In this document: positions 4,562-36,421 of the stretch, piece by piece
Position numbering within the stretch: the first letter of the stretch is position 1
Layout of the letters: every line of letters begins with the position of its first letter
Assembly: GCA_040752695.1 (NCBI GenBank)
Contig: JBFMGO010000014.1
Coordinates: 1-64,000 of the forward strand
DNA from: a bacterium
GTDB lineage: Bacteria > SZUA-182 > DTGQ01
Direction of reading: 5' to 3'
Length of the DNA: 64,000 nucleotides
Notes under the pieces: generated by a model
What the model saw: only the letters and a program-made list of their open reading frames with translations
Databases searched by the model: none
Told to the model about the DNA's origin: nothing
Program-made: the position numbers and the translations under genes

Positions 4562-4567
4562 AATCTG

Positions 4568-4960
4568 TTATCTCTTCGAGAACTGATAACGTGCACGTGC
4601 ACCACGCTGGCCGTATTTTTTCCGCTCCTTCACGCGAGGGTCACGGGTGATAAAGCCCGCTTTTTTCAATTTTTGCCGAAGATCCGGATTGACCTGAAGG
4701 AGGGCTTTCGATATGCCATGCCGGACTGCCCCTGCCTGGCCGTAAATTCCTCCTCCTCCGACATTGATCGCAATATCGTACTTATTAGTATAATCGGTTA
4801 TCTGGAGCGGTTGTAAAATCGTTGCTTTCAGCCGTTCGGTAGGAAAATATTCCTCAACCGATTTTTGATTGATTAAAATTTTGCCATTCCCCGGACGCAG
4901 CCACACTCTGGCAACAGAGGTCTTGCGTTTACCCGTTCCGTAATATTGTGCAAGTGCCAT
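4568..4960 (-). CDS. rpsI: 30S ribosomal protein S9
   Basis: [21 protein letters not shown] and ERKKYG...QFSKR. Confidence 0.98.
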
Positions 4961-5091
4961 GCTCTTTTTGCTCCTTTCTCTTTACTATTTCTTTCCGCAG
5001 TATTTCTTTCCGTACTTTATTGTTTCTTTCCACTCTTGCACTTACCATTTCTTGTCATCTTTATCCGCTGTCGCGGTTAGGTTACCTTACA

Positions 5092-5592: not shown

Positions 5593-5645
5593 CTTTTTTC
5601 TCACAGCCACTGTTGAGTGCTTATCATGTTCCAAAGGTTTAAGAG

Positions 5646-18139: not shown

Positions 18140-18156
18140 AGGCATGAATATTGCAT
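18140..18156 (+). promoter_or_regulatory. sigma54 -24/-12 promoter for fdnGHI
   Basis: AGGCATGAATATTGCAT (GG-N10-GC). Confidence 0.65.
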
Positions 18157-18293
18157 ATTATACTTATTACACAAGCTCTTGGGGGGCAGATTATAGCCAT
18201 TACAGAACAACAAGATCCCAAATTCCCAAGCAGGTCATCACATGACAGCCCTTAAATCCTATAACTATCAATCCCTTCTCAAAGGAGGACTCA

Positions 18294-21278: not shown

Positions 21279-21284
21279 TGAGCC

Positions 21285-22088
21285 ATGAGTATGAAACGAA
21301 TTGGTCTTTTGATGGATACTTCGCGGTGCCTGGCCTGCCGGGCCTGCCAGGTGGCCTGCAAGCAATGGAACAAACTTCCTGCTGAGCCGAAAGAATCCTG
21401 GAAAACCAGAGGCAGCTATGAAAATCCTGCCGACCTTTCTCCGGTCACCTGGACGCGAGTGAGGTTCACTGAATATGAGCAGCATGGCGGCGGGGTCGAG
21501 TGGCTTTTTCGCAAATTGCAGTGCATGCAGTGCCAGGACGCCACCTGCCTGAAAGTATGCCCTGAGAAAAAGGCTCTTTATCGGAACCAGGATGGATTGG
21601 TTGTTCTTGACAGCGCCTATTGCACGGGATGCGGATACTGCACCCAGAACTGTCCCTTTGAAATTCCCCGCTTCGATGCCAAAGAAAGAAGAACCTTCAA
21701 GTGCAATATGTGTTATGACCGCATCGCCAATGGCCTGATCCCGGCCTGTGCCAAAGCCTGTCCTGCACAGGCGATCCAGTTCGGCCCGCGAAATGAACTG
21801 ATTGAAAAGGCCCATCAGCGCATTCAGGCTCTGAAAGGAAAGGGATTCCCGGAGGCTTCACTTTACGGAGAGAATGAGTGCGGCGGCCTTGGGGTAATAT
21901 ATATTCTGAAATATGGCCGGAGCAAGTATGAGGGGCTGCCTGCTGATCCCAAAGTGCCCCTGTCGGTCAAACTGTGGAAAGACTGGCTCAAACCCGTGGG
22001 ACTGGCCTCATTTTTAGGCGGACTTGGCTTTGTGGTCTTCCATTACGTCCTGCACGGGCCAAAGATTATTGAAAAGGGAGGTGATTGA
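21285..22088 (+). CDS. fdnH: Formate dehydrogenase iron-sulfur subunit
   Basis: Four ferredoxin-type Cys clusters and a C-terminal TM anchor. Confidence 0.9.
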   Translation: MSMKRIGLLMDTSRCLACRACQVACKQWNKLPAEPKESWKTRGSYENPADLSPVTWTRVRFTEYEQHGGGVEWLFRKLQCMQCQDATCLKVCPEKKALYRNQDGLVVLDSAYCTGCGYCTQNCPFEIPRFDAKERRTFKCNMCYDRIANGLIPACAKACPAQAIQFGPRNELIEKAHQRIQALKGKGFPEASLYGENECGGLGVIYILKYGRSKYEGLPADPKVPLSVKLWKDWLKPVGLASFLGGLGFVVFHYVLHGPKIIEKGGD

Positions 22089-22090
22089 TC

Positions 22091-22735
22091 ATGGCTGATT
22101 ATTCTTCTGAGCTGAACCTGGTTAAGGTTTCCAACTGGTTTGAACGCCTGTCCCATACGGTTTTGGCCATCAGTTGGCTGCTCCTGGTCTTTACGGGCCT
22201 GGCTTTCTATTCCAAAAAGTTTGCCCTGTTCGGAGAATTTTTCGGCGGCCTTCGAGCCACTGTGCCGGTGCATAATTATGCCGGCCTTGTTTTTCTGTTC
22301 TCGGTAGTGATGATATTCTTTGCCATGTTTAAGGAATCGGCCAAAATTGACAGCGATGATATCAAATGGGTACTGTGTGCAGGCGGCTATCTGTGGCCAG
22401 CCAAAGCGCCCGAATCAGGGCGGTTCAATACGGGACAAAAAGGGATGTACTTTTTCACGGTCATTATGGGTATCATTATGGGCGTGACTGGCTGGACCAT
22501 GTGGCATGCCCCGACCACCTCTTATAATAAGGCGTGGGTATCTATCTGCTATCCGGTCCACTCTCTTGGCGGGATTCTCTTTTTTTCTGCCTGGATAGTT
22601 CATGCCTATTTCGGATCGATCTGCAACCCGGGCAGCATCGAGGCCATAACTCATGGATGGGTATCCAAGGCATGGCTGCGGCTTCAGCATGGGAAGTGGT
22701 TCAAAGAGCATGTCCCGGTGAATAAAAAGATGTAA
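22091..22735 (+). CDS. fdnI: Formate dehydrogenase cytochrome b (gamma) subunit
   Basis: ERLSH, GRFNTGQK, four TM helices with His ligands and W..LQHGKW. Confidence 0.9.
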   Translation: MADYSSELNLVKVSNWFERLSHTVLAISWLLLVFTGLAFYSKKFALFGEFFGGLRATVPVHNYAGLVFLFSVVMIFFAMFKESAKIDSDDIKWVLCAGGYLWPAKAPESGRFNTGQKGMYFFTVIMGIIMGVTGWTMWHAPTTSYNKAWVSICYPVHSLGGILFFSAWIVHAYFGSICNPGSIEAITHGWVSKAWLRLQHGKWFKEHVPVNKKM

Positions 22736-22758
22736 GAGCCTGTGATAAGCCTACCCCC

Positions 22759-22804
22759 AAATCCCTCCTCCCCCCTTTTCTAAAAGGGGGGAGGAGGGAT
22801 TTTT
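22759..22804. terminator. Long palindrome (REP-like or terminator) after fdnI
   Basis: aaatccctcctcccccctttt / aaaaggggggaggagggattt, about 21-bp perfect stem. Confidence 0.7.
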
Positions 22805-22894
22805 AACATAGAGTCCAATTAAGCTTTGCACACTATGTGGATACTTTTCAGGTTTTGGCTGAATTTTCCATGGGGATCGGGGATTCGTGAACGA

Positions 22895-22924
22895 TTGACA
22901 GTTCCATGAATGATGGAGTATACT
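22895..22924 (+). promoter_or_regulatory. sigma70 promoter for the Lrp/trp-like cluster
   Basis: TTGACA-N18-TATACT. Confidence 0.6.
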
Positions 22925-23041
22925 GGGTTTCTAATAGAAAAAGGTATTCCCATCATTATGTTTATTTCACAATATTTATTATCACATACCAGCTTTTATC
23001 GACTTTAGCACCTTTTCCTTGACAATAGAAGGAGCGCTATC

Positions 23042-23317
23042 ATGATTACATCGGTTGTAATGATTACGTGTGAGGTGGGTAAGGTTCACCAGATCGCAGA
23101 GGATCTGGTGAACCTGGATGGAATTGCCGAGGTGTACTCTATATCCGGTGAGTACGATATCATGGCCATTATCCGGGTGAAGGAGTACGATTCTCTGGCC
23201 AAGCTGGTATCACAGGATATCGCCGGTCTTGATGGCATCACCATGACCAACACCCACATGGCCTTTCGCTGCTACTCGAAGCATGATATGGAGAGAATGT
23301 GGTCGGATTTTCTCTAG
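23042..23317 (+). CDS. Stand-alone Lrp/AsnC ligand-binding (RAM) domain protein
   Basis: EVYSISGEYDIMAIIR and GITMTNT; no HTH. Confidence 0.85.
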   Translation: MITSVVMITCEVGKVHQIAEDLVNLDGIAEVYSISGEYDIMAIIRVKEYDSLAKLVSQDIAGLDGITMTNTHMAFRCYSKHDMERMWSDFL

Positions 23318-24195
23318 GATTTGATGGCGGTATTGATGATGGCGCATTTCCCGGTGATAATAGATGCTCGCCTGATAATGGCTCGATACCCAGGGATAGC
23401 GGCCGCTCAGTTGATGATGGCTCATCTCCCAACCATGGTAGCCACTCGCTCTCAGGCGCGATCCTGAAGGCGCAGGAGCGGGGCGAGGCAGCGGTGATTG
23501 TCGATATCAAGCCGGTTTCTCCCCGGGACGGCGACCTGATAGGAAACCGTGATCCGGCGGAGCTGGCCAGGTCACTGGAGAGAGCCGGTGCATGCGCCTT
23601 ATCGGTGGTGACAGAACCCCGGCATTTTGGCGGCAGCATCAGGACGCTGGCCGAGGTTGTCCGGGCGGTTTCTTTGCCTGTTCTCAGAAAGGATTTCATC
23701 TCCGGTCTCGATCAGATCGATGAGTCTCGAAAAGCAGGCGCATCCAGTGTGCTGCTCATTCTGGCCACTATTCCCGCAAGCTTAGTGTCTCCTTTGTATC
23801 AGCGCTGCCGCGAACTGGGTCTGGAGGCGGTAGTCGAGATACACAACCGGACGGAGTTCGATCGGGCGATGGCCTTGTCTCCCGCCCCCGCCATTATCGG
23901 CATCAATAACCGGGATATCCTGAACCTTGAGAAAGATGGCGGCAGCGTGCTCCTGACCGAGGAACTGGCCCCATTAGTCCCCGACTCGGTGGTAGTAATT
24001 TCGGAAAGTTCCCTGACTACACCTGACGATATAGCTCGCGCCATCAGAGCGGGCGCGGACGCCGTGCTGATAGGCACTGCCATTTTGAAATCGGACGATC
24101 CAACTGCACGCCTTGCGGTACTCAGTCAGGCTGCGAGGATGGCCTGCAGGGAGAATAATCCATTGACCAGATTGCCCGGTGTCGGAAGACCATGA
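23299..24195 (+). CDS. Divergent indole-3-glycerol-phosphate synthase-like protein (TrpC paralogue)
   Basis: DIKPVSP, LSVVTEPRHFGGS, LRKDF, VEIH, GINNRD, SES and DAVLIG; start uncertain because the N-terminus is a repeat. Confidence 0.8.
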   Translation: MVGFSLGFDGGIDDGAFPGDNRCSPDNGSIPRDSGRSVDDGSSPNHGSHSLSGAILKAQERGEAAVIVDIKPVSPRDGDLIGNRDPAELARSLERAGACALSVVTEPRHFGGSIRTLAEVVRAVSLPVLRKDFISGLDQIDESRKAGASSVLLILATIPASLVSPLYQRCRELGLEAVVEIHNRTEFDRAMALSPAPAIIGINNRDILNLEKDGGSVLLTEELAPLVPDSVVVISESSLTTPDDIARAIRAGADAVLIGTAILKSDDPTARLAVLSQAARMACRENNPLTRLPGVGRP

Positions 24196-24884
24196 CCAGA
24201 GTCAAGATATGCGGTCTCATGAGCCGCACCGATATCGATATGGCTGTTGCTGCCGGAGCTGATTCCTTAGGATTCGTGACCGAATATCCGATTTCTGTAC
24301 CGTGGAACATCACCCGCCAAAAGTCTGCCGAACTGGTGGCGCAGAGCCCGCCCTTTGTGACCACTACTGCGGTCGTGGGTGGTGAAGTGGCGCAGATGGT
24401 GGGCATAGCCCAGGCGGTCAGGCCGCATTTTTTGCAGCTTCATGGCGATGAAACCCTGGAGGAGATCCAGGCTGTCTGTGATGCGCTTACTGGTACCGGC
24501 ATCAAGGTGTTGAAGGCGCTTCGGATCGACGTGCAGACGGGAAAAGCGCAGTTTTCCATTCAGGACCCGGTTGAAGCCTGCCGCGTTCTGGCCCGGTCCG
24601 GCCTGGCCGGACTGGTTATCGATTCCAAGACCGCAAGCCGCCCCGCTGGCACGGGTGTTGCACTGGACTGGCGTATGGTCAAAACGGTGTCAGACAGTAT
24701 CCTCCTGCCCCTCATCCTGGCCGGCGGGCTGACTGCACGCAATGTCGGTCAGGCCATTGCTCTGGTGCGGCCCTATGCCGTGGACGTAATCAGCAGCGTG
24801 GAAAGGGAGCCAGGCGTGAAAGACGAACAACTGATCAATGAGTTTGTCAAGGCTGCAAAAGCAGCCTTGCTCCCTGCAAATTGA
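24192..24884 (+). CDS. Phosphoribosylanthranilate isomerase-like protein (TrpF paralogue)
   Basis: VKICG, QLHGDE, IDS...GTG..LDW, LAGGL and DV.SSVE..PGVKD. Confidence 0.85.
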   Translation: MTRVKICGLMSRTDIDMAVAAGADSLGFVTEYPISVPWNITRQKSAELVAQSPPFVTTTAVVGGEVAQMVGIAQAVRPHFLQLHGDETLEEIQAVCDALTGTGIKVLKALRIDVQTGKAQFSIQDPVEACRVLARSGLAGLVIDSKTASRPAGTGVALDWRMVKTVSDSILLPLILAGGLTARNVGQAIALVRPYAVDVISSVEREPGVKDEQLINEFVKAAKAALLPAN

Positions 24885-24937
24885 TAAGCTGTTAAGCTGA
24901 GCGGGCTTTCTATCACTATAAACTTTAGGATAGTTCC

Positions 24938-25666
24938 ATGAAAAGACCGTATACATTTATGCTGGTGGCTGTCAGCCTGGACGGTAAAATATCTCCCAGG
25001 CGGCGTCCGGGACAGCCCAACCCGATTGGCCCATCCCTCATCGATGCGGATATCATGAAACTGCATAATTCCCAGCGCGCGAATGCAGATGGCATTATGG
25101 TGGGCCTCAACTGCATCCTTTTGGACGATTCGCGCCTGACCCTGCGTGAGGGCCGTCCGGGGCACCAGCTTACGCGCATCGTGCTGGATGGATTGGCCGA
25201 AGTCCCTCCGACGGCAAAAGTGCTGAATAGGGATGCACCCACGATTATGGCTGTAACAGAGGATGCACCCATCGAGCGGGTCCGGGCCTTCCAAGATGCC
25301 GGAGCTCAGATTGTGACTGCCGGACACGGCAAATATGTGGATCTTGTACTGCTCATGAATGCCTTATACGAGCAATTCGGAATCAGGCGGCTTTTAGTTG
25401 AGGGTGGCGGAACGGTGCACCAGTCGATGATCAGCGCCGGCCTTTACGATGAGATTCATCTGATCATCTGCCCCTTTGTCATTGGCGGCTCCGCATCCAT
25501 CACACCTGTGGAAAGAAGCTCTTTTTGGCCAAAGGAAAAGGTACCGACCTTTCAACTGGTGAAGGTCGATGTCCTCGGTGATTATCTCTCTGTAATCTAC
25601 AAACCAGGTCCGGATACTTCCTGTACGTTATCGGCCACTGCTGAATGTGAGTTACCGGCTACCTAA
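24938..25666 (+). CDS. RibD C-terminal/DHFR-fold reductase
   Basis: SLDGKI, R..ADGIMVG, DDSRLT, LLVEGGG and DEI.L.ICP.VIGG; no deaminase domain. Confidence 0.85.
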   Translation: MKRPYTFMLVAVSLDGKISPRRRPGQPNPIGPSLIDADIMKLHNSQRANADGIMVGLNCILLDDSRLTLREGRPGHQLTRIVLDGLAEVPPTAKVLNRDAPTIMAVTEDAPIERVRAFQDAGAQIVTAGHGKYVDLVLLMNALYEQFGIRRLLVEGGGTVHQSMISAGLYDEIHLIICPFVIGGSASITPVERSSFWPKEKVPTFQLVKVDVLGDYLSVIYKPGPDTSCTLSATAECELPAT

Positions 25667-25747
25667 ATGAATACCTTTGACTGAAGGATTTCAATTGAAG
25701 GACCGAATGACTTCAAATGAAGGATTAGAATGAAGGAGTAAACGGGT

Positions 25748-26863
25748 ATGGAGACAAAAGAGGATCGTTGGAGAAAGTTTGGTGCCATTGTTGTCCGTCT
25801 AACGCGTGGTGAAAATATTACCAGGGAGGAAGCGCGGGAGTGCTGGAGGCAAATCTGCGAGGAGGAGCAGAGCGATCTGCAGCAGGGCGGTTTTATCGGT
25901 GCGCTCAAGTCCAAGCCTGAGACACCCGAAGAGGTGGCCGGAACCTTTGAGGCCCTCTACGAGCACGATACTCTGAAGGTGCAGGTAAATACGCCTGAGC
26001 CCCTGATCGATAACTGCGGCACAGGCGCTGATACCCTGAAAACAATGAACATCAGTACGGGAGCTGCCATTGTTTCATCCTCCCTTGGCCTGTATGTGGT
26101 CCGGCACGCTGCACGGGCGATTTCATCCAACTGTGGGGCCATCGATGTCATAGAGGCACTTGGCGTGAACGTGGAATCAACTCCCGATATCCCGAAAAAG
26201 AGCATCGAAAACGCAGGCATCTGCGCCTGGAATGCCTTTTTACCCACGGTGCACCCAAAGACCCTGGCCAGGGTTTTGTCACAGATCCGGTTTGGTTCTG
26301 CCATTAACCTGGTGGGGCCGCTCCTGAATCCCACCATGCCGACCTTTAAAGTTATGGGTGTACCGACCCTGGAAATGATCGAGATCGAGATCAAGACCCT
26401 GCGGGAGCTGGGTTTCAGGCGGGCATTCGTCATGCACGGGCTGGACGATGAGTCCGGAAAAGGCATGGACGAGTTATCTACTCTTGGAACCACTCACGTG
26501 GCCGAGTTGTCCGAGGATGGATCGATCGAGAATTACACCCTGACTCCCGAAGATTTCGATCTGAAGAGGGCGAGGTTTGAGGACGTGGCTTCAAGCCGTG
26601 ACGTACAAAAAGACGCTCTGGCTCTGCTCCGGGTGCTGGCAGGCAAAGACACGGGACCCCGGCTTGATATCGTCTGTCTGAATGCAGCTCCGCTGCTTTA
26701 CATCACAGACAAGGCCAAGGATCTGAAAACGGGCCTCACGATGGCCAGGGAAGCGGTGGCAGATGGTCGCGCCCTGAACAAACTGCGCGATTGGGTCACC
26801 TGGCAGAACGAAAAGCCGGAGGATGGCCTTCCGAAACTGGAAGAGATGATCAGCAGGCTTTGA
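25748..26863 (+). CDS. Divergent anthranilate phosphoribosyltransferase-like protein (TrpD paralogue)
   Basis: DNCGTGAD, NIST, GPLLNP, GMDELS, PEDF and LNAA; canonical KHGNR replaced by RHAAR. Confidence 0.85.
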   Translation: METKEDRWRKFGAIVVRLTRGENITREEARECWRQICEEEQSDLQQGGFIGALKSKPETPEEVAGTFEALYEHDTLKVQVNTPEPLIDNCGTGADTLKTMNISTGAAIVSSSLGLYVVRHAARAISSNCGAIDVIEALGVNVESTPDIPKKSIENAGICAWNAFLPTVHPKTLARVLSQIRFGSAINLVGPLLNPTMPTFKVMGVPTLEMIEIEIKTLRELGFRRAFVMHGLDDESGKGMDELSTLGTTHVAELSEDGSIENYTLTPEDFDLKRARFEDVASSRDVQKDALALLRVLAGKDTGPRLDIVCLNAAPLLYITDKAKDLKTGLTMAREAVADGRALNKLRDWVTWQNEKPEDGLPKLEEMISRL

Positions 26864-26940
26864 TCCGGAGGACAAACGGATCATTGATGCCAAACGGGTA
26901 ATATCGAAGGTAAGCAGGTAACGAGGGTAAGCAGGTAACC

Positions 26941-29154
26941 ATGCAGATAAGATATTCCAGTTGCTATTTTTGTACAAGTAAAGGCTGTGCCATGAAGGTC
27001 TATGTCGAGGGTGACCGGATAAAGAGAGTAGCTGTCGATACCAAGGCCCCGGTTACACCCAAGGCATTTTGTGTACGGCCGACCCTGGCCAAAGAGTATC
27101 AGGAGCATCCTTTCCGGTTGCACTATCCCTTGAAGCGCAGGGCAGAGCGCGGCGCAGATCAGTGGGAGCAGATATCATGGGACCAGGCCCTCGACGAGAT
27201 AGCGGAAAAACTGCAAAATCTTCGCAATCGCCATGGCGCTGAAACTCTGGCCACCAGTTCGGGCACGGGCCGTGGTGCGTGGGATTTTGCCAAAGGCCGT
27301 TTTATGAACCTGTTCGGCAGCCCTAACCGCTTCGGTGCGGTCACGATCTGCTATGGCCCCCGCAGCATGGTCTGGTTCACTACGTTTGGCGGGTCGGTCG
27401 TGTCAGATCAAAAGCCTGGCAAGACGCGGATGATGGTGCTCTGGGGCCGCAATCCCCACGAGGGTGGGCCATCGTCGTGGCACAGCTTTAAAAAGGCAGG
27501 TCAGGCAGGCGCGTTGACCATGGTCGTCGATCCCCGGTGCACCGAAGCGAGCCGCACGGCAGACTGCTGGGTGCAGCTTAAGCCGGGCACGGATGCGGCC
27601 CTTGCCCTTGGCCTTATGCATATCATCATTGAAGAGGGGCTCTACGACCGGGAGTTTGTCGAAAACCATACCTTCGGATTCCCTCAGCTCAAAGAAAGGA
27701 TTAAGGAATATCCGCCGGAAAAGGCAGCCCGGATCACGGGTCTTTCCGAATACAAGATACGCGAGACAGCCAGGTTTTTTGCGGCGAATCAGCCATCGAC
27801 CATGGTCATCGGCGTGGCGGCAGAGCACAGCTCTCCAAACAGCATCCAGGCGATTCGCGCCATCAATATTCTTTTCGCTCTATGCGGCAGTATTGACAAA
27901 GCAGGCGGCAGCCTGATCGCAGGCCCGTGCTCAGGATTCATACCGGATGCTGCCATGGAGCTGAATCATATGCTGACTCCTGAACAGCGAAAGAAACAGA
28001 TCGGCAGCGACCGCTTCCGTTACCTGAGTTATCCCGGATGGGAACTGGTCGAAGAGCAACTTCGCAAAAAATGGGGCGACCGCCATCCCGCCGCTGTCTA
28101 TCTGAACTGCCTGGCCCATGCACCCAGCGTCTTCCGGGCTATGCTGACCGAAAAGCCCTATCCGGTAAAAGCCCTGATTGTCTCCGCCAGTAACCCCCTT
28201 CTCTCCTATGCCAATACCAGGCTCGTCTATCAGGCGCTCAAGGCCACAGAGCTTCTTTTGACCTTTGACATTACCTGGACGCCTACGGCTCGTATCTCAG
28301 ACTACGTGCTGCCTGCCGCCTGCTGGATGGAGCGGCCCGACATGGGCAACTTCGCTTCAGTGGGTGCATATCCCCTGGTTCAGATCGGCGAGGCAGCCCT
28401 CCCAAGCCGTGTTCCGGGCAAGTACGAGCGGTTGAACGACTATGAATTCTGGCGGGAACTTGGCCTTCGACTGGGACAGAGCGAGTACTGGCCATGGAAA
28501 ACTTTCGAGGAGGTATGGGAATACAGGCTGCGTGAAATAATGGATAGACGAGGTGTCGAGACGCTCCCGGAATTTATTCGTCAGCAGCGCTGGGAGATCG
28601 ATCCCCCAAAAGCCGGCCTGTGCAGTCAGGGGCCGCTGGCGACTCCATCAGGTAAAGTGGAACTTTATTCTACCATTTTCGAGAAGCTGGGTTACGATCC
28701 GCTGCCCGGTTATCTGGAGCCGGTCGAGCCTGAGGATATTGTGCGCAAATATCCTCTTTTGAATATCAGCGGCTGTCGCGTCATGCCGTATCACCACAGC
28801 GAGTTTCGCCACGTCAAGGGCTTTCGCCAGCGCCAGCCTGACCCAATCGTCGAAATCCACGTGGACCTTGCCCGGCGCAAAGGCATTGCTGACGGTGACT
28901 GGGTTTGGATCGAATCACCGATCGGACGGGTAAAGCAGCGTGCACGTCTGACGACTTCATTCGCCCCTGAGTATATCGTTACTCAGCACTCCTGGTGGTT
29001 TCCGGAAATGGCCGGTGAAGAACCATTCGTGCACGGGCTCTGGGAGTCGAACATCAATGTCATCACGGACGATGACCCTGCCAAGTGCGACCCCATCTCC
29101 GGTGGCTGGCCATTCAAGGGCCAGTACCTCCGCTGCCGCATCGAGAAGGTATGA
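26941..29154 (+). CDS. Cytoplasmic Mo/W-bis-PGD enzyme, acetylene hydratase-like (DMSO reductase family)
   Basis: N-terminal CX2CX4C...C, ISWDQALDEIAEKL, RFMNLFGSPN, ICYG metal-ligand Cys, TPSGKVELYS and a molybdopterin-dinucleotide C-domain; no Tat signal. Confidence 0.85.
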   Translation: MQIRYSSCYFCTSKGCAMKVYVEGDRIKRVAVDTKAPVTPKAFCVRPTLAKEYQEHPFRLHYPLKRRAERGADQWEQISWDQALDEIAEKLQNLRNRHGAETLATSSGTGRGAWDFAKGRFMNLFGSPNRFGAVTICYGPRSMVWFTTFGGSVVSDQKPGKTRMMVLWGRNPHEGGPSSWHSFKKAGQAGALTMVVDPRCTEASRTADCWVQLKPGTDAALALGLMHIIIEEGLYDREFVENHTFGFPQLKERIKEYPPEKAARITGLSEYKIRETARFFAANQPSTMVIGVAAEHSSPNSIQAIRAINILFALCGSIDKAGGSLIAGPCSGFIPDAAMELNHMLTPEQRKKQIGSDRFRYLSYPGWELVEEQLRKKWGDRHPAAVYLNCLAHAPSVFRAMLTEKPYPVKALIVSASNPLLSYANTRLVYQALKATELLLTFDITWTPTARISDYVLPAACWMERPDMGNFASVGAYPLVQIGEAALPSRVPGKYERLNDYEFWRELGLRLGQSEYWPWKTFEEVWEYRLREIMDRRGVETLPEFIRQQRWEIDPPKAGLCSQGPLATPSGKVELYSTIFEKLGYDPLPGYLEPVEPEDIVRKYPLLNISGCRVMPYHHSEFRHVKGFRQRQPDPIVEIHVDLARRKGIADGDWVWIESPIGRVKQRARLTTSFAPEYIVTQHSWWFPEMAGEEPFVHGLWESNINVITDDDPAKCDPISGGWPFKGQYLRCRIEKV
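28812..29152 (+). repeat. 341-bp direct repeat, copy 1
   Basis: Identical by eye to 30118-30458 (offset 1306). Confidence 0.95.
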
Positions 29155-29250
29155 GGTGCTGCCTATTCTCTCTGAATAGAGCAGGGGCTCCGGCAGTGAT
29201 CAATGATCCGGTCTGCTTTTTTGAATTTCACAAATGAGAGGAAGATATTT

Positions 29251-29673
29251 CTAGAAGGGGACAATTACCTTAATGCCTGGGATCTTCTCAAAATCTTTCC
29301 TGTTTTCTGTAATAATTTCGCTCAGACCATTTTCCTTCATACAGGCCACAATCAGTGCATCCCATAAATGAATTCCATATTCGGCAACGTAGTCCAGAGC
29401 ACTCAAAAAGGTATCAACATCTCTATCGATAATCCTCCAGCTTTCTGATTTTAAAAAATCTTCCACGATAGATTTTGCCACTGATATATCGACAGGGTTT
29501 TCGACTTTTCTGGTGATAACAGCGAAGAACTCCATAAGGTTTTGCAGGCAGACAGCACCTCCGCCCTCCTTCCAGTTTTGCTTGAGAATATCTCTTGAAA
29601 CCTCATGCCTCTTTCCTTCAGAAGTATCGTAAGCATACACGAGGATGTTTGTGTCGATAAGCTTATCTGGCAT
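29251..29673 (-). CDS. PIN-domain (VapC-like) toxin
   Basis: LIDTNILVY, E, WDALI and TEN.KDF acidic active-site pattern. Confidence 0.88.
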   Translation of the reverse strand: MPDKLIDTNILVYAYDTSEGKRHEVSRDILKQNWKEGGGAVCLQNLMEFFAVITRKVENPVDISVAKSIVEDFLKSESWRIIDRDVDTFLSALDYVAEYGIHLWDALIVACMKENGLSEIITENRKDFEKIPGIKVIVPF

Positions 29674-29878
29674 ATAAGTCTTCGCGTCTTGAGTAGAGTT
29701 TTTTACCTAAAGAAAAACCTTCATCCAGAAGTTTTAATTGTCTTTCTTTTATTTCATCTTGCTCCTTTTTATTCATAACCTTTAGAGTAACGACCGCTTG
29801 TGTCCCGGCAGGAAAACCTGTTTCTTTATCGAGACGGACGATATTGCCTTCAATCACTCCTTTATAAACCTTTTTCAA
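29663..29878 (-). CDS. Antitoxin (AF2212/DUF104-like) paired with the PIN toxin
   Basis: TTG start after GGAGGTGA; YKGVIEGNIVRL beta motif; SRREDLY end overlaps the toxin start. Confidence 0.65.
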   Translation of the reverse strand: MKKVYKGVIEGNIVRLDKETGFPAGTQAVVTLKVMNKKEQDEIKERQLKLLDEGFSLGKKLYSRREDLYAR

Positions 29879-30117
29879 AGACTTCACCTCCTCTACAGGC
29901 AAGAAGATCACCGCTTCAAAATTTACCATATTGGATTATCCTATTTATAGAATATACTATTTCCTCTGGGAGCTGTAAAGGAATTTCATGCTGGCCAATC
30001 GCAGGTAAATCACACAAGGCCAATTGGTAAAAGTATAGATCTGGCTGCCCTGCAACTTCACGGTTTTTCCTCTTGCTTTTTCTTTTCCATCGGGTCATCT
30101 GAAGCGAGTTTCGCAAT

Positions 30118-30463
30118 CGTCAAGGGCTTTCGCCAGCGCCAGCCTGACCCAATCGTCGAAATCCACGTGGACCTTGCCCGGCGCAAAGGCATTGCTGACG
30201 GTGACTGGGTTTGGATCGAATCACCGATCGGACGGGTAAAGCAGCGTGCACGTCTGACGACTTCATTCGCCCCTGAGTATATCGTTACTCAGCACTCCTG
30301 GTGGTTTCCGGAAATGGCCGGTGAAGAACCATTCGTGCACGGGCTCTGGGAGTCGAACATCAATGTCATCACGGACGATGACCCTGCCAAGTGCGACCCC
30401 ATCTCCGGTGGCTGGCCATTCAAGGGCCAGTACCTCCGCTGCCGCATCGAGAAGGTATACTGA
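30118..30463 (+). pseudogene. Duplicated 3' end of the Mo/W enzyme gene (direct repeat copy 2)
   Basis: Exact copy of 28812-29152, ending KVY-stop; no 5' part of the gene. Confidence 0.9.
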
Positions 30464-30510
30464 ATAAAACACGTAAGTCTCATTTCCGAGAAAGTTCTCC
30501 TTCGAAAAGA

Positions 30511-30560
30511 TTGACTTCAGCCGATTAGACAGCTATGATATTAATAGCTCATATGGGCTA
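30511..30560 (+). promoter_or_regulatory. sigma70 promoter and palindromic operator of the dinJ-yafQ-like module
   Basis: TTGACT-N17-TATGAT followed by the tagctcatatgggcta palindrome. Confidence 0.6.
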
Positions 30561-30603
30561 CTATTATCATAGCTATTCTATAAGAGATAGGAGAATTGGG
30601 CCA

Positions 30604-30864
30604 ATGAGTAAAACATCAACAGTGAGAGCCAGAATTGAGCCTGGCTTAAAAAAAGAAGTGGAAGATCTTTTTCATAAATTGGGATTATCGACCACAGAAG
30701 CAATTAATATTTTTTACTGCCAGGTAAAAATGAGGCAGGGATTACCATTCCCTGTTGCCCTTCCTAATGAGGAAACAAAAAGAATATTTGAAGATACTGA
30801 TAAAGATCAAAACGTTATTCATTGTTCAGATGTAGATGAATTGTTTAAGAAGCTCAAAATATAA
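30604..30864 (+). CDS. RelB/DinJ family antitoxin
   Basis: SKTSTVRARIE..LK...LGLSTTEAI.IF...GLPF...PNEET. Confidence 0.9.
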   Translation: MSKTSTVRARIEPGLKKEVEDLFHKLGLSTTEAINIFYCQVKMRQGLPFPVALPNEETKRIFEDTDKDQNVIHCSDVDELFKKLKI

Positions 30865-31133
30865 TGTTGAAACCCGGCTATACCAAACAGTTTCAAAAAG
30901 ATTTGAAAAGGATGGAAGGGCAGGGAAAGAATATCGAAAAGTTAAAATCTATTATTATCCAACTTGTTAATCAAAAACCGCTCAATGAAGGACACAGAGA
31001 TCATAAGCTTATTGGTAATTATAGAGATAGACGCGAATGCCATATCGAATCTGATTGGCTGCTTATTTATAAGACAACAGAGGAAGAGATTATTTTTGAA
31101 AGGACCGGATCACATTCTGATCTTTTCAAGTAA
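30864..31133 (+). CDS. yafQ: YafQ family mRNA interferase toxin
   Basis: F.KDLK, DHKLIG, RECHI.SDWLLIY and RTGSHSDLF. Confidence 0.92.
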   Translation: MLKPGYTKQFQKDLKRMEGQGKNIEKLKSIIIQLVNQKPLNEGHRDHKLIGNYRDRRECHIESDWLLIYKTTEEEIIFERTGSHSDLFK

Positions 31134-31173
31134 TTTTGACGGTGTTCCTTTCCAGTAATACTGTAGAGTAAAG

Positions 31174-32568
31174 ATGCTTATGAGCGAGATGCTTATGAAT
31201 GACAGCCTTGACAGCCTGCCCATAGGATGGAGTCTGGAATCATCGGGAGAAGGGCTCGGCAGAGTGCTTCGCTACCGTTGGGTCATCTTCTCCATTCTGG
31301 CTTTCAGTTATATCCTTGTTTACTTTCACCGGCTGTGCCCGGCTGTGGTTGCCGGAGACATGATGCGGGACCTTCACGCCACCGGCGTTTTGCTGGGACT
31401 GCTTGGCTCTGCCTACTATTACCCTTACGCCCTGATGCAGCTTCCCGCCGGGCTTCTTGCAGATTCATGGGGACCGCGCAAGACCATTACCACCTTCTTT
31501 GCGGTCGCCTGTGCGGGTTCGCTTATCCTGGGCTGGGCGCCGTCGCTTTCCTGGGCGATTTTCGGACGGACCCTGGTCGGGATCGGGGTATCGATGCTGT
31601 TTGTCCCTACCATGAAGATTCTGGCCGAGTGGTTCGACAGGCAGGAATTCGCCAGCATGGCTGGAATCCTGATCGCCATGGGGGGCGTCGGATCAATTAC
31701 CGCTACTTCGCCGCTGGCCTACATGAGCAGGGCAGTAGGATGGCGACTGTCGTTCACCATTGTGGGTATCATCACCCTGATCCTGGGCATTTTACTCTGG
31801 CTCATGGTGAGGGACAGGCCCCAGGACATGGGCTGGCCATCCCCCCTGGAGAACGGCGCTGATGATGAGCGGCCAGCCGGCATCGGGCTGTTCGAGGGAG
31901 TAAAAAACGTGCTTTCGTATGGCCCTTTCTGGCCTCTGGCTATCTGGTTCTTTTTCGGCTGCGCCGTATTTTTCTCCTTTATCGGCTTATGGGGAGGCCC
32001 TTACCTTATGCAGGTCTATGGCCTGAGCAAGCCCCAGGCAGGCAATATCCTGATGATGTCGGCCTTCGGGATGGTGGTCGGGAGCCCTATTTTGAGCTTT
32101 CTCTCAAACCGGGTGTGCAAAGGCAGAAAGCCGCTTTTGATGATCTCAAGTTTCATGACGGTCCTCATCACCGCTGCCTTGACTTTTCTCACTGACAGGC
32201 TGCCCATTCCCGGCCTTTACCTGCTCTGCTTTTTCACGGGTGTGTTCGTCAATGCCATCGTGGTGATCGGCTTCACAGCGACTAAAGAGCTTTTTCCCGT
32301 CAGCATTGCCGGGACATCCACAGGACTGGCCAATTTTTTCCCCTTCCTGGGAGGTGCCCTTCTTCAGCCCTTCATGGGATATCTGCTCGAGCGGTATGGA
32401 AAGGCCGGTGAATCCTTCACCGCAGCCGGTTACAGCCGTGCCTTCATGGCCATGTTCGTCTGTGCAATAATCACCTTTGCGGCCAGCATCTTCATCAAAG
32501 AAACCCTCATCAGGGAACCTCTCATCTCAGGGAACCTCAAAGAGGGCTTGAGAAGGAAGGGTGAGTAA
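31174..32568 (+). CDS. MFS transporter
   Basis: About 12 TM helices; motif A GLLADSWGPRK; start uncertain. Confidence 0.9.
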   Translation: MLMSEMLMNDSLDSLPIGWSLESSGEGLGRVLRYRWVIFSILAFSYILVYFHRLCPAVVAGDMMRDLHATGVLLGLLGSAYYYPYALMQLPAGLLADSWGPRKTITTFFAVACAGSLILGWAPSLSWAIFGRTLVGIGVSMLFVPTMKILAEWFDRQEFASMAGILIAMGGVGSITATSPLAYMSRAVGWRLSFTIVGIITLILGILLWLMVRDRPQDMGWPSPLENGADDERPAGIGLFEGVKNVLSYGPFWPLAIWFFFGCAVFFSFIGLWGGPYLMQVYGLSKPQAGNILMMSAFGMVVGSPILSFLSNRVCKGRKPLLMISSFMTVLITAALTFLTDRLPIPGLYLLCFFTGVFVNAIVVIGFTATKELFPVSIAGTSTGLANFFPFLGGALLQPFMGYLLERYGKAGESFTAAGYSRAFMAMFVCAIITFAASIFIKETLIREPLISGNLKEGLRRKGE

Positions 32569-32832
32569 TTTACCCTCCCTACATACCTCCAGGGGGTAAT
32601 TGCCGGTTTTTTCTCTTGCTTTTTCTTTTTCATTTTGAGAACATAATTAACTTAACTGCGACAGATTCCTGCCATCCGCGTAAAGGAGGTCAGATTCCAG
32701 GAGCCAGAACGCGCAGAGCAGGAGCCAGAGCCCGGAGTGAGAGAGGGGGGGGAGGAGAGCCGCTCCCTTTCATGCGAATATTTTGGTATTCCCTTGAGAG
32801 TTTCCTGGAAACTCGCCGGAGATAATCGGTAC

Positions 32833-33972
32833 ATGTTTTTGCTTTTCCTTTTCGGGGGATTTTCCACAGGATTTTGCCTGATCATATATGGAATATATAT
32901 CCTGGCCTTTATCAAAGGGAGAAAGTATCTTCCCATCGACGAACTAAAGGAGTATGTGCCTGTTTCCGTGCTTATTCCGGCAAGGAATGAAGAAAAGGTC
33001 ATGGAGAGGAAGATCAAGAACCTGGCTGAAATCGATTATCCCCGCGAACTGCTTCAGGTCGTTGTCGTTGATGATGCATCGACTGATCAAACCAGGGAGG
33101 TCGCTCAGGCAGCCCTTTCCCGATATCGTATTTCCGGCATGGTTATTTCAAACGACACCAGAAAAGGTACAAATTACAATTATAATCATGGGATGAAGTA
33201 CGTATTCCATGATGTTGTCGTAACCACCGATGCCGATGTGACCTTGGAAGGTCAGGCGCTGAAGAGAATGGTGGCTGTTTTACAGAATGACGATAAAATC
33301 GGGGCCGCCTGTGGGGAATTGGTGCCGCTCATTGACGGTCAGTATATTTCGACAGGGGTCGAGAAGCCCTACCGCGATGTTTTTGGAAAAATGTGCTCCT
33401 GGGAAAGCGCACTGCACAGCACCTACTGCTTTAACGGCCCGCTGATCGCCCTGAAAAAGCAGGCTTACAGCCCAATGAATCCGCACAAGGGAGCAAGTGA
33501 TACCAATATGGCGCTGTCCGTTATACGCAATGGCTATCAGGCCAAGTACATTTCCTCGGCAAAATTCTACGAATGGGTTCCAACCAAGCTGGCTCAGCAG
33601 AAAAAACAGAAGATTCGCCGGGCATCCCGGCTTCTGGAATCCACCTGGGCGGCCAGGGGGATGCTGTTCGATAAGAAATACGGAAAGTTCGGTATGGTGG
33701 TACTGCCTCTTCGGATGGCCATGCTCTTTTTGGTACCTGCCCTGTGCCTGGTTTCCCTGGTCTTTTTTGGCATGCTCTCTTTGCGGTTCCTCGGTATTCT
33801 GGGTTTGTTTCTCTATCTCCTTATTTTATTGGGAGTTATCGTGCTGGGAGCTTACCGTACCAACTTCCTGACATCTTTCATCTGGCATCAATACTATTTG
33901 CTCGCCGGTTTTGTTAACATGATCAAACCCATGCACATCTGGGAGTCTGTGGATAGAACGGCTTTACATTAA
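32833..33972 (+). CDS. GT2 glycosyltransferase (CESA-like) with TM segments
   Basis: IPARNEE, VDDASTD, TDAD, SD and QKIRR (QxxRW-like). Confidence 0.85.
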   Translation: MFLLFLFGGFSTGFCLIIYGIYILAFIKGRKYLPIDELKEYVPVSVLIPARNEEKVMERKIKNLAEIDYPRELLQVVVVDDASTDQTREVAQAALSRYRISGMVISNDTRKGTNYNYNHGMKYVFHDVVVTTDADVTLEGQALKRMVAVLQNDDKIGAACGELVPLIDGQYISTGVEKPYRDVFGKMCSWESALHSTYCFNGPLIALKKQAYSPMNPHKGASDTNMALSVIRNGYQAKYISSAKFYEWVPTKLAQQKKQKIRRASRLLESTWAARGMLFDKKYGKFGMVVLPLRMAMLFLVPALCLVSLVFFGMLSLRFLGILGLFLYLLILLGVIVLGAYRTNFLTSFIWHQYYLLAGFVNMIKPMHIWESVDRTALH

Positions 33973-34032
33973 TACGCTTTCTTGACGTAATATATCGGCA
34001 TGACCATGAAGATATGAAGCGATTATGAAGAT

Positions 34033-35316
34033 ATGAAGCAGCAGGCGCAAAAGATTTTGATTATCTCTCTATCGGGTATCGGAGACCTTATTTTATTCAC
34101 TCCAGCCATTCCCTTGCTGCGAAAGAGGTTTCCTGAGGCAGAGATTTCCCTTCTCGTGAAAAAAAAGGAAGCGGCAAAAGTGCTCAAAGGGAATCCTTAT
34201 ATTGATAAAATCATTGTCTTTGATCCGCAAAAAGCATCGATAAAAGAGAACATCCTGTTTTATTTCAGTATGCGAAAAAGAAAGTATGACATCAGCCTTT
34301 CCACCTTTCCGGCCATGACTTTTCTCAATAATCTCTCCACCTTCGCCATCGGCGCCAGGAAGCGCTGGGTCTATAAAACAGACCACCCCCTGCTCTCTTT
34401 CGATTTTTTACAAAACAGGCGTATCCCTTACCAGCACGGTAAACACCGGATTGATTATAATCTGGCTCTGGTCAAGGCCCTTGCCCGTGAGCAGGAATCG
34501 GGCAGTGAGAAAAAACCGGGCACTGAAGATCCGATTGAACTTGAAACAAACCCTTTGGATCAGGTGTATATTTACGGGAGAGGTCACGCTGGCTGCGGAA
34601 GTTCCGGCGACGGCAATAACGGCAATAATGGTAATAACGGTATTCATGGGAATAAAAGAAACAGCAGAAAATATGGAAGCAATGGAAACGGCAGGGGTAA
34701 TGGAAGTGATGGAAGGGATGAAAGATACGGAAATTACCAAAAGGGCCAATCCGGGCAAATCCTGCTGCGGCTTGGCGCAGACCCCCTGGAGTTGTTCATT
34801 GGGATTCATGCCGGTTCAGGAGACAACCAGCCATTTAAGAGGTGGGGTGAAGAAAAATTCGCCCTGCTGGCTGATAAGATTCAAAAAGAGTTCCCCTTTC
34901 GCGTCATTCTGCTTGGGGGACCGGAAGAGGAAGAGCTGTCGAGAAGAGTTGCCAGGCATATGGCAACCACTCCTCCCGTAATTGCTGCAGGAAGAACCTG
35001 CATCGAAGAGACCCTGGCCCTTATCAGTCGGTGTGAACTTTTGATCAGCAATGATTCAGGGGTCATGAACATGGCTTTTGCCCTGCGCAAAAAGATCCTG
35101 GCCATCTTTGGCCCCACCGATGATACCTGTACCAGGCCTCTGGGCAAAAACGATGTCGTTATTTTAAAGGAATTCCCCTGCAAACCGGCATGCAGAAAGA
35201 GATATCTCTACAGCAAGGAGTGCAATTTCGGCTACCGATGTCTCAAGGAGCTTTCGGTGGATGAAGTGTGGAACGTTGCGCGGGGTGTATTGGAATCCAT
35301 GGTGAGACAGGAATAG
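34033..35316 (+). CDS. GT9 (heptosyltransferase-like) glycosyltransferase with a Gly/Asn-rich insert
   Basis: GIGDL, IHAGS...KRW, SNDSG and AIFGPT. Confidence 0.88.
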   Translation: MKQQAQKILIISLSGIGDLILFTPAIPLLRKRFPEAEISLLVKKKEAAKVLKGNPYIDKIIVFDPQKASIKENILFYFSMRKRKYDISLSTFPAMTFLNNLSTFAIGARKRWVYKTDHPLLSFDFLQNRRIPYQHGKHRIDYNLALVKALAREQESGSEKKPGTEDPIELETNPLDQVYIYGRGHAGCGSSGDGNNGNNGNNGIHGNKRNSRKYGSNGNGRGNGSDGRDERYGNYQKGQSGQILLRLGADPLELFIGIHAGSGDNQPFKRWGEEKFALLADKIQKEFPFRVILLGGPEEEELSRRVARHMATTPPVIAAGRTCIEETLALISRCELLISNDSGVMNMAFALRKKILAIFGPTDDTCTRPLGKNDVVILKEFPCKPACRKRYLYSKECNFGYRCLKELSVDEVWNVARGVLESMVRQE

Positions 35317-35343
35317 AAATTTTGAAGCCTGGGTGTACGATGA

Positions 35344-35496
35344 GAAGAAGATGGAGAAATGTGCCCATATGCTTTCTTTGATAGGTCTTTTCAAGGAGGA
35401 AATGTGATGGAAATGAAATATTTCCCCGACACTGATACCTTGTTGATAGATTTTACAGATGAATCACCTTCAGACGGAACATCCTTCAATGGATGA
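35344..35496 (+). pseudogene. Relic of a DUF2283-type module (partner C-terminus plus truncated DUF2283 start)
   Basis: Reads EDGEMCPYAFFDRSF then MEMKYFPDTDTLLIDF and stops after 29 codons. Confidence 0.5.
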
Positions 35497-36421
35497 TTTC
35501 AAGACAGGTCGCCTTCGAATTGCAGTGACGATTCCCTGCTATAATGAAGATGCCTCCATCGGCAAAGTAATCAAGGATTTTCAAAAGGCATTGCCTGAAG
35601 CCCGGATTATTGTCTTTGATAATGATTCCACCGATAATACTGCTCAGATCGCCCAGGGCAGCGGGGCCTGTGTGATCCGGGAGGGAAGAAGGGGAAAGGG
35701 AAACGTGATCCGGTCTATCTTTGAGAAGATAGATGCTGATTTCTACGTCCTGGTCGATGGCGATGACACCTATCCGGCTGAAGAGGTGGGAAAACTGTTG
35801 ACCCTGGTCCAAAATGATCAGGCGGATATGGCTATCGGCACGCGACTGGATAACTTTACCAAGGAATCGAGAGAACTTCTCCATAGTATCGGCAACCGGG
35901 TATTGTTAAAGATTCTGAACCTGTGTTTTCATACAAACCTGTCAGATATCCTGTCCGGTTACCGGGTATTCAACCGGGAGTTTGTGAAAACCGTCCCCCT
36001 TTTTTCAACAGGATTTGAGATTGAAACCGAGTTAACCATTCAGGCACTGATGCGTGAATTCCGTATCCGGGAGGTTCCGATAACGTACCGGTCCAGACCT
36101 CAAGGGGGGAAATCCAAAATCAAGCCCTTCAGGGACGGGTACCGGATTCTCATGACTATTCTTATGTTTACCAGAGATTTGCGGCCTATGATTTTCTTCC
36201 CCGCTCTCAGCCTGTTCTTTATTCTGGGGGCATTTATCCCGGGGTTTCGGGTCATCCGTGAATATCTCCAGACCGGTCTCATCCGCTACCTGCCTTCTGC
36301 CATACTGGCTACAGGCATGGTAATCCTTGGGATTCTTTTTTTCATTGCAGGTTTTATCGTTCATACCCTGAACCGCAGGTTTAATGAAATCAACCTTGTC
36401 TTAAAAAGGATGCAAAAATAA
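35489..36421 (+). CDS. GT2 polyprenol-phosphate glycosyltransferase (DPM1/GtrB-like)
   Basis: IPCYNE, DNDSTD, GKG, VDGDDTY, DILSGYR, FEIETE and two C-terminal TMs. Confidence 0.88.
   Translation: MDDFKTGRLRIAVTIPCYNEDASIGKVIKDFQKALPEARIIVFDNDSTDNTAQIAQGSGACVIREGRRGKGNVIRSIFEKIDADFYVLVDGDDTYPAEEVGKLLTLVQNDQADMAIGTRLDNFTKESRELLHSIGNRVLLKILNLCFHTNLSDILSGYRVFNREFVKTVPLFSTGFEIETELTIQALMREFRIREVPITYRSRPQGGKSKIKPFRDGYRILMTILMFTRDLRPMIFFPALSLFFILGAFIPGFRVIREYLQTGLIRYLPSAILATGMVILGILFFIAGFIVHTLNRRFNEINLVLKRMQK

Follow-up and report, generated by a model that had tools for sequence, protein, structure and literature searches.

A widely conserved six-gene cassette of TrpC-, TrpF-, RibD- and TrpD-like proteins with a tungsten/molybdenum enzyme is a candidate non-tryptophan pathway

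A 64,000-nucleotide stretch of bacterial DNA (hereafter the window; positions 1 to 64,000 of contig JBFMGO010000014.1, assembly GCA_040752695.1, GTDB lineage SZUA-182; DTGQ01) carries a compact cassette of six genes, all on the + strand and packed into 6.1 kb at 23042-29154. They encode a stand-alone RAM domain protein, relatives of the tryptophan enzymes TrpC, TrpF and TrpD, a relative of the C-terminal reductase domain of RibD and an acetylene-hydratase-like tungsten/molybdenum (W/Mo) enzyme; the trp- and rib-type proteins are denoted TrpC', TrpF', TrpD' and RibD' (or RibD_C'). On balance we favour the view that the cassette specifies a self-contained pathway outside tryptophan synthesis, one that would N-phosphoribosylate some other aromatic or heteroaromatic amine and process the product, and as part of that view we lean towards treating the six genes as one operon. 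A preliminary description of the window had proposed a pathway from these genes together with a nearby MFS transporter gene. Profile matches recover every gene it named, on the + strand and with unchanged coordinates (Table 1).

A case for a functional unit comes from conservation. Two scans of contigs drawn from one genome per species gave 20 and 43 loci. After exclusion of repeat fetches of the same contig, five alphaproteobacterial loci, 13 more distant loci and a canonical trp locus (L021), 30 unique cassette-type loci were retained, the window included, with TrpD' 72-100% identical; each gene was counted where the locus was long enough. The W/Mo gene lies directly downstream of TrpD' in all 29 assessable loci. 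RibD' (27/28), TrpF' (24/25) and TrpC' (23/24) are each missing in L012 alone, and the cassette opens with RAM in 21 of 24, the exceptions being L012, L013 and L042. L012, from a metagenome-assembled genome (MAG) of Desulfobacterales, has only TrpD' and the W/Mo gene (2749-6001), placed after rpiB-glyA-nrdR. L013, from a Brocadiia MAG, has a divergent ribBA gene (762-2204, - strand) upstream of the cassette. Gene order and strand are identical across the cassette loci, and the arrangement is far from chance because the six-gene order recurs in 29 other unique loci. RibD' and the W/Mo gene thus almost always accompany TrpD', TrpF' and TrpC', the conserved neighbourhood of five enzymes by which the preliminary description proposed to judge its pathway.

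The hosts of the cassette are all MAGs and bear at least eight lineage labels: Desulfobacterales, Desulfatibacillum, Syntrophus and Syntrophobacteria, Desulfuromonadales, NC10, Brocadiia, Phycisphaerae, Lentisphaerae, and Gammaproteobacteria with Chromatiaceae. The flanks of 24 loci contain no conserved neighbour, the flanking genes being unrelated housekeeping genes, and trpE, trpG, trpB and trpA never occur with the cassette across the assessed loci. The MFS gene does not hold as a general member of the pathway. Of 22 assessable loci, only 3 have it after the W/Mo gene, and it is missing in all those outside the genus of the window; within that genus the linkage is found in 3/3 genomes, and in the other two (G001 and G002) the MFS gene comes directly after the W/Mo gene. 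Among plasmids, 165 records match TrpD', all below 60% identity, and no cassette-type copy was seen. No fusion of TrpD' into a longer protein turned up at E up to 1e-60, which is weak evidence. The literature searched, mostly outside subscription journals, yielded no description of the cassette, no paper joining acetylene hydratase with anthranilate phosphoribosyltransferase or a stand-alone RAM protein with anthranilate, and none on this TrpD-like clade. In the available text of PMC5445326, the TrpD-family genomic neighbourhoods covered are those of TrpD, DeoA and YbiB only.

The cassette trp- and rib-type genes are extra paralogues of a canonical set in the same genome. The separate canonical trp operon that the preliminary description called for is present, with trpE-trpG-trpD-trpC-trpF on contig C15 and trpA on C23, so the cassette does not hold the only trpC, trpF and trpD of the genome. 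A full rib operon (ribD-ribE-ribBA-ribH-nusB) is found on contig C58. Identity to these canonical copies is 32-37% overall (TrpC' 34%, TrpF' 33%, RibD' 32%, TrpD' 36-37%). Among 101 genomes, namely that of the window (G000) and 100 relatives, four carry TrpD': 3/3 of the genus and a single one from a different family of the same order. A canonical TrpD is likewise present in all four, and the best TrpD' match in the remaining genomes is at most 41% identical.

Phylogeny separates TrpD' from canonical TrpD, giving the distinct clade expected in the preliminary description, for the TrpD family. In a quick IQ-TREE maximum-likelihood tree of 61 TrpD-family sequences (excluding L017, L018 and L044, cassette sequences that are partial), 16 canonical and 45 non-canonical sequences split with a support of 100 in the Shimodaira-Hasegawa-like approximate likelihood ratio test (SH-aLRT). 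The 27 cassette sequences group together (support 93) and are joined with the alphaproteobacterial copies (support 99).

Of the cassette proteins TrpD' is also the most conserved, at 73-91% identity across lineages. When the window is compared with orthologues of other lineages, the protein is 73-86% identical, while four-fold degenerate third positions are only 27-36% identical and hence saturated. This contrast points to long-term purifying selection; recent horizontal spread as the cause of the high protein identity is ruled out by the saturated sites. In the comparison of genomes G000 and G010, identity is 64% for canonical TrpD and 86% for TrpD'. In a large protein collection the best 120 TrpD' clusters are all at least 75% identical, and those that carry a name are annotated as anthranilate phosphoribosyltransferase. 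The GC content of the cassette is 55.5% against a genome mean of 48.4% (standard deviation 2.8), which puts it in the top 0.1% of 1685 six-kb windows. Because of this high value an older acquisition of the cassette by transfer is possible.

The residues kept and changed in the cassette enzymes were mapped from alignments made in this analysis. TrpD' passes the NCBI trpD cut-off (TIGR01245). We take the TrpD motifs GTGGD, N-x-S-T and D-E to serve PRPP (5-phosphoribosyl-1-pyrophosphate) and Mg binding, the Asn of KHGN to belong to the acceptor site and the Arg of PxR to bind the anthranilate carboxylate. TrpD' keeps the PRPP/Mg motifs as GTGAD (the second Gly replaced by an invariant Ala), NIS and GMDE. 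At the acceptor site, 27 cassette sequences have RHAA (RHAAR) instead of KHGN, and the canonical PxR Arg aligns with Leu, in a region where the alignment near two Arg residues is ambiguous by two residues. The protein also carries a conserved C-terminal tail, W-V-T-W-Q-N..P.DG.P. A comparable pattern is seen in TrpF'. The Cys and Asp of the catalytic pair, presumably general base and general acid, are kept in the motifs K-x-C-G and D-S-K-T, which are conserved in 24 sequences. The canonical Ser-x-Arg segment, whose Arg (Arg36 in T. maritima) we assume to contact the anthranilate carboxylate, is replaced by a conserved EYP..VPWN insertion with no basic residue.

The preliminary description held that the substrate residues of the trp-type enzymes are altered. 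This is borne out for TrpD' and TrpF', and is wrong for TrpC', in which all catalytic residues are kept. The motifs D-I-K, L-x-K-D-F, V-E-x-H, G-I-N-N-R and S-E-S vary little or not at all, with Asp in place of the first Glu; the catalytic Lys, Lys and Glu and the Asn-Arg and Glu-Ser substrate contacts are retained, including the Arg of GINNRD. What TrpC' lacks is the N-terminal helical lid (about the first 45 residues) that covers the anthranilate pocket, the profile match beginning at position 43. In L015, L026, L022, L005, L042 and L003 at most 22-38 residues can precede the D-I-K motif. The TrpC' of the window has instead a unique low-complexity N-terminus of about 45-50 residues (23299-23440), rich in Asp, Gly, Ser and Pro, which its relatives are without and in which no tandem repeat was found. 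Its start is a GTG at 23299, inside the RAM gene, and there is no other in-frame start before the conserved core.

RibD' keeps the NADPH motif EGGGT and scores below the equivalog cut-offs of both reductase families (TIGR01508, 163.7 against 186.45 bits; TIGR00227, 147.9 against 150.15 bits). Its nearest relatives are the archaeal-type reductases (2azn, E 1.5e-35): 2azn and 6p8c score about 125 bits against 63 bits for B. subtilis RibG, and among profiles TIGR01508 scores 164 bits against 67 bits for eubacterial RibD. According to the available text of PMC3631187, the pyrimidine 2-substituent (oxo or amino) is selected by the residue five before the L of LDGK, a Lys in bacterial, a Thr in fungal and an Asn in archaeal enzymes. 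In 24 cassette sequences this specificity position is an invariant Leu, and RibD' has an extra conserved loop, P.R.PGQ.NP.GP. In the RAM protein, PF01037 covers residues 6-76 of 91; there is no helix-turn-helix (DNA-binding) domain, and the family alignment has an invariant C-terminal motif, MAFR.YSK..ME..W.

The W/Mo protein has no twin-arginine signal and no partner subunit gene, and is predicted to be a cytoplasmic, single-subunit enzyme of the acetylene-hydratase lineage. In 26 full-length sequences C8, C11, C16 and C44, which would hold the cluster, and C137, the predicted metal ligand, are invariant. We take Asp13 of acetylene hydratase to activate water and Ile113, Ile142 and Trp179 to form the hydrophobic ring around acetylene, with the numbering mapped by alignment. 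At these positions the cassette enzyme has Thr/Ser, Gly, Tyr/Phe and Gly, respectively. By these replacements it is predicted not to be an acetylene hydratase, and its pocket is probably larger. In a 50%-identity library it forms its own cluster (representative 69% identical), the next clusters reaching at most 46-49%, and about 35 other clusters outscore acetylene hydratase itself (428 bits).

The nearest relatives outside the cassette (at most 46% identical) occur in multiple copies in MAGs of Dehalococcoidia and Desulfobacterota. They adjoin TRAP/TctC transporters, a separate GltD-like gene, a UbiD decarboxylase, aldehyde:ferredoxin oxidoreductase and ferredoxins, as well as a CoA ligase accompanied by an acyl-CoA dehydrogenase; in two relatives the enzyme is fused to a GltD-like NAD(P)H/FAD/iron-sulfur module. 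Because of these NAD(P)H/iron-sulfur partner modules and gene contexts, the close relatives would appear to be redox enzymes acting on small organic substrates. In the available text of PMC7028382 acetylene hydratase has its closest characterised relatives in the catechol dehydroxylases, and that of PMC9516567 describes sulfur transfer to an imidazole ring by a more distant Mo/W relative. As a separate observation, some Dehalococcoidia MAGs hold at least 3-5 W/Mo relatives per genome (L086, L099, L100, L102 and L146 in one; L088, L098 and L101 in another), often beside other Mo enzymes, which has the look of an uncharacterised family of enzymes that has expanded.

Gene content, paralogy, co-conservation, constraint and the pattern of kept and changed residues are the observations from which we infer the chemical steps, their order and the product. 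The inputs would be common metabolites only: PRPP, NADPH and an aromatic or heteroaromatic amine. TrpD' would transfer 5-phosphoribose from PRPP onto the amino group of an acceptor other than anthranilate, probably one without an ortho-carboxylate. TrpF' would open the N-riboside by Amadori rearrangement and TrpC' would close a ring on the resulting ketone. RibD' with NADPH may reduce the N-ribosyl imine to an N-ribityl chain, or the imine of a later intermediate, and the W/Mo enzyme may modify the ring of the acceptor or of the product by oxygen transfer, (de)hydroxylation or hydration. The RAM protein could be a small ligand-sensing subunit that tunes one of the cassette enzymes. The expected product is a small phosphorylated N-heterocycle or an N-ribityl arylamine, used intracellularly. 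A more specific version of this proposal, which we hold only tentatively and would not expect to prove right, is that the product is an unknown cofactor-like metabolite, a heteroaromatic ring bearing a PRPP-derived ribityl or glycerol-phosphate chain, and that the six proteins form one interlocked assembly. Such an assembly would explain why TrpD' evolves several times more slowly than the housekeeping TrpD.

Several points weigh against a dedicated pathway of this kind. All cassette hosts are uncultured MAGs, and none of the members is a protein of known substrate, product or activity. If TrpF' and RibD' both act directly on the product of TrpD', they would compete for one N-riboside. The GINNRD Arg kept in TrpC' presumably contacts the substrate carboxylate in canonical indole-glycerol-phosphate synthase (IGPS), which misfits a carboxylate-free substrate, and since TrpD' scores above the trpD cut-off (280 against 199 bits) it may have residual anthranilate activity. 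The catabolic-looking contexts of the nearest non-cassette W/Mo relatives would favour a degradative role just as well. Finally, five alphaproteobacterial MAG loci (L043, L047, L049, L050 and L052; at about 4500-5610) encode a TrpD' 62-71% identical with the other five genes absent; the neighbours are adenylate/guanylate-cyclase-TPR proteins in 4/5 and a HAD phosphatase in 2/5. In four of these genomes the cassette queries detected neither a TrpF' nor a W/Mo enzyme of the cassette type. Because these MAGs carry TrpD' without its partners, the protein therefore also works outside the cassette pathway.

Of the competing explanations, the one we take most seriously, unlikely as we judge it, is catabolism, salvage or detoxification, in which the W/Mo enzyme would reduce, dehydroxylate or hydroxylate an environmental aromatic amine or N-heterocycle that is then N-phosphoribosylated and rearranged or reduced for breakdown; in the genus of the window, the MFS protein would import the compound or export the product. 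The company kept by the nearest W/Mo relatives (multi-copy, beside transporters, UbiD and CoA ligase, two fused to a GltD-like module) is consistent with this, as are the catechol dehydroxylases of the same lineage in the available part of PMC7028382 and the adjacent MFS gene in 3/3 genomes of the genus. However, the cassette has no transporter, regulator or downstream catabolic gene as a conserved companion, given the MFS count of 3/22 and the unrelated flanks. Protein identities of 73-86% with saturated synonymous sites across phyla are rare for catabolic islands, and spending PRPP and NADPH on a nutrient would be costly. An improbable alternative is a pterin- or flavin-like branch: RibD' would reduce the product of GTP cyclohydrolase II, or TrpD' would ribosylate a free aminopyrimidine, after which TrpF' and TrpC' would carry out an Amadori rearrangement and a ring closure like that of GTP cyclohydrolase I to build a pteridine-type second ring, which the W/Mo enzyme oxidises or hydrates. 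Such a scheme would use every enzyme once and in linear order, and RibD' is indeed much nearer to archaeal-type diaminopyrimidine reductases than to bacterial RibD. One locus (L013) has the divergent ribBA beside the cassette, and in L012 TrpD' and the W/Mo gene follow glyA-nrdR, a frequent rib operon position. Yet the residue that reads the pyrimidine C2 substituent is the invariant Leu in RibD', not Lys, Thr or Asn; a rib gene is nearby in only 1 of about 24 loci; a full rib operon already exists in the genome; and the scheme is built on chemical analogy only.

We give very little credence to a second, differently regulated set of tryptophan isozymes, serving for example under anoxia or stress, with RibD', the W/Mo enzyme and the RAM protein as passengers. 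The Pfam and NCBIfam names are those of TrpC, TrpF and TrpD, TrpD' lies above the trpD cut-off, the catalytic residues are intact and public annotation reads anthranilate phosphoribosyltransferase, all as this idea would have it. Against this, the canonical operon is present in all four cassette genomes checked, TrpD' forms a separate clade with changed acceptor-site motifs, TrpC' has no lid helix, and the cassette never includes trpE, trpG, trpB or trpA but almost always RibD' and the W/Mo enzyme. The pathway we favour, on an amine other than anthranilate, is that of the preliminary description in outline: the separate canonical copies, the co-conservation and the TrpD' clade of its own agree with it, whereas MFS membership does not, and the cobamide-ligand-like base that had been suggested finds no support in this analysis. 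An indole-like or N-ribityl product, also suggested there, stays conjectural, as no result names a substrate or product.

The wider TrpD-like family offers a partial parallel. In a sister clade 41-42% identical, the TrpD-like gene lies directly after a gene for a Zn-dependent alcohol/polyol-type dehydrogenase in 3/3 loci, an arrangement reminiscent of the coupling between phosphoribosyltransferase and sugar-chain oxidoreductase. More distant TrpD-like genes (33-45% identical) occur in Myxococcota and Acidobacteriota, including Polyangium fumosum DSM 14668 (L055), the only cultured organism seen in the non-canonical TrpD clade. In L053, L058 and L062 (about 4500-5600) the distant TrpD-like gene stands beside genes for large Ser/Thr kinase-AAA-TPR proteins and haem-oxygenase-like iron enzymes and beside tryptophan-halogenase-like, UbiA and PNPOx genes.

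Within the window, the cassette genes are closely spaced, with -19, -4, 53, 81 and 77 nt between successive genes; the RAM gene and the TrpC' start overlap by 19 nt. The genes trpE, trpG, trpA and trpB are not in the cluster. The promoter-like site in front of the RAM gene is recognised by its match to the consensus only and ranks first among 11 sites of this kind in 22600-32700, a number not above the shuffled expectation of 9.4. It is preceded by a terminator-like hairpin (22773-22798) of the upstream fdn (formate-dehydrogenase) operon. An Rfam scan of 22500-33000 for riboswitches and leader RNAs (E up to 1) returned chance-level matches only, and no family fits the leader. A look-up of sequencing runs covering 23000-29200 listed none.

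Between the W/Mo and MFS genes lies a segment missing from both other genomes of the genus (G001 and G002). It is a strain-specific insertion, or possibly an artefact of MAG assembly. A direct repeat, about 356 bp long, of the 3' end of the W/Mo gene flanks a vapBC-like module on both sides, and the second copy continues as an open reading frame of 98 aa (30167-30463). The toxin-antitoxin modules have a GC content of 34-40%, against 55.5% in the cassette. The repeat and the vapBC-like module represent either a very recent insertion with duplication or an assembly artefact.

Two neighbouring groups of genes complete this part of the window. Upstream, at 18144-22735, is a formate dehydrogenase operon of the FdnGHI type, with the alpha subunit gene followed by those of the 4Fe-4S subunit and the cytochrome b subunit; it is not conserved beside the cassette in other loci. 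The alpha subunit carries a twin-arginine signal (RRGFLK). Its reading frame contains a TGA at the position of the classic ARV-U-HS motif, and the protein is probably a selenoprotein, which translation table 11 divides into two open reading frames. After the MFS gene, 32737-36421 holds three glycosyltransferase genes (GT2, GT9 heptosyltransferase-like, GT2), unrelated to the cassette in other genomes.

Table 1 Features of the cassette region and of the sister two-gene unit. Positions are those of the window unless a locus is named; PRA, phosphoribosylanthranilate; PGD, pyranopterin guanine dinucleotide.
Feature	Position	Strand	Match or remark
Promoter-like site TTGACA-18 nt-TATACT	22895..22924	+	11/12 consensus matches; upstream of RAM gene
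RAM (Lrp/AsnC ligand-binding) domain protein, stand-alone, 91 aa	23042..23317	+	PF01037, E 4e-16
TrpC' (IGPS-like barrel)	23299..24195	+	PF00218, E 2e-55; profile match from position 43 of 254
TrpF' (PRA-isomerase-like)	24192..24884	+	PF00697, E 4e-31
RibD_C' NADPH reductase	24938..25666	+	PF01872, E 4e-37
TrpD' phosphoribosyltransferase	25748..26863	+	PF00591 + PF02885; TIGR01245 280.6 bits, cut-off 199.05
W/Mo bis-PGD [4Fe-4S] enzyme	26941..29154	+	best solved relative acetylene hydratase 2e7z, E 3.6e-127, residues 8-723
Strain-specific insertion (or possible assembly artefact) with toxin-antitoxin genes, outside the pathway	29155..31133		parts in the next five rows
PIN/VapC	29251-29673	-	toxin-antitoxin module
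Small open reading frame	29663-29929	-	no Pfam match
Duplicate of W/Mo gene 3' end	about 30102-30459 = 28796-29153		direct repeat, perfect, about 356 bp
RelB	30535-30864	+	toxin-antitoxin module with YafQ
YafQ	30864-31133	+	toxin-antitoxin module with RelB
MFS transporter	31174..32568	+	PF07690
Sister TrpD-like + Zn-dehydrogenase two-gene unit	L020:6982-9104, L080:5089-7218, L081:3428-5514

The proposed chemistry follows a recurring design. In histidine synthesis (HisG-HisA-HisF) and in GTP cyclohydrolase I, a PRPP-derived N-riboside undergoes Amadori rearrangement and gives a new ring. The cassette differs in having no HisG, HisF or FolE homologue, and the likeness is in chemistry only. With the TrpD2/YbiB family of DNA-binding proteins TrpD' shares the glycosyltransferase family 3 fold; membership in that family was considered and rejected, given a weak match (NF006005, 32 bits against a cut-off of 185) and the kept PRPP/Mg motifs.

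Ribosylaminopyrimidine reductases (the RibD/RibG C-domain, Rib7 and M. jannaschii 2AZN) reduce an N-ribosyl to an N-ribityl group. RibD' has their PF01872 fold and EGGGT motif, with its best matches among the archaeal type, but differs in falling below the equivalog cut-off and in its invariant Leu and extra loop, and the genome has a separate fused RibD. The W/Mo enzyme matches acetylene hydratase (2E7Z) over its full length and agrees with it in the [4Fe-4S] Cys residues, the Cys metal ligand, the predicted cytoplasmic location and the lack of a partner subunit gene. It departs from it in its pocket residues, in its own cluster at 50% identity and in nearest relatives that have NAD(P)H/iron-sulfur partners. 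In the available accounts of this lineage, aromatic or heteroaromatic rings are the substrates of catechol dehydroxylases and, at greater distance, of the metallopterin ergothioneine synthase. Should the cassette turn out to make a new cofactor or a redox-active heterocycle, anaerobic metabolism would gain a pathway and the acetylene-hydratase lineage a new reaction type; were the cofactor proposal true, this would be the first W/Mo enzyme of that lineage recruited into a PRPP-based biosynthetic line.

The closest comparison is with the tryptophan branch itself. TrpD, TrpF and TrpC are textbook models of enzyme evolution. The cassette shares with the branch the three folds and families (PF00591/PF02885, PF00697 and PF00218), the PRPP/Mg motifs and the acid-base catalytic residues, and probably the chemical logic of N-ribosylation, Amadori rearrangement and ring closure. 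It differs in that its three proteins are only 33-37% identical to the genome's own, in the RHAA motif of TrpD', the replaced Arg segment of TrpF' and the missing lid of TrpC', and in never being linked to trpE, trpG, trpB or trpA while being linked to a reductase and a W/Mo enzyme. Public annotation of these genes as ordinary tryptophan enzymes misleads metabolic reconstructions of the MAGs that carry them. What the cassette would represent is the joint recruitment of all three enzymes, alongside a reductase of riboflavin type and a W/Mo enzyme, to a single fixed operon that occurs widely in anaerobic lineages of sediments, groundwater and reactors and is held under unusually strong constraint.

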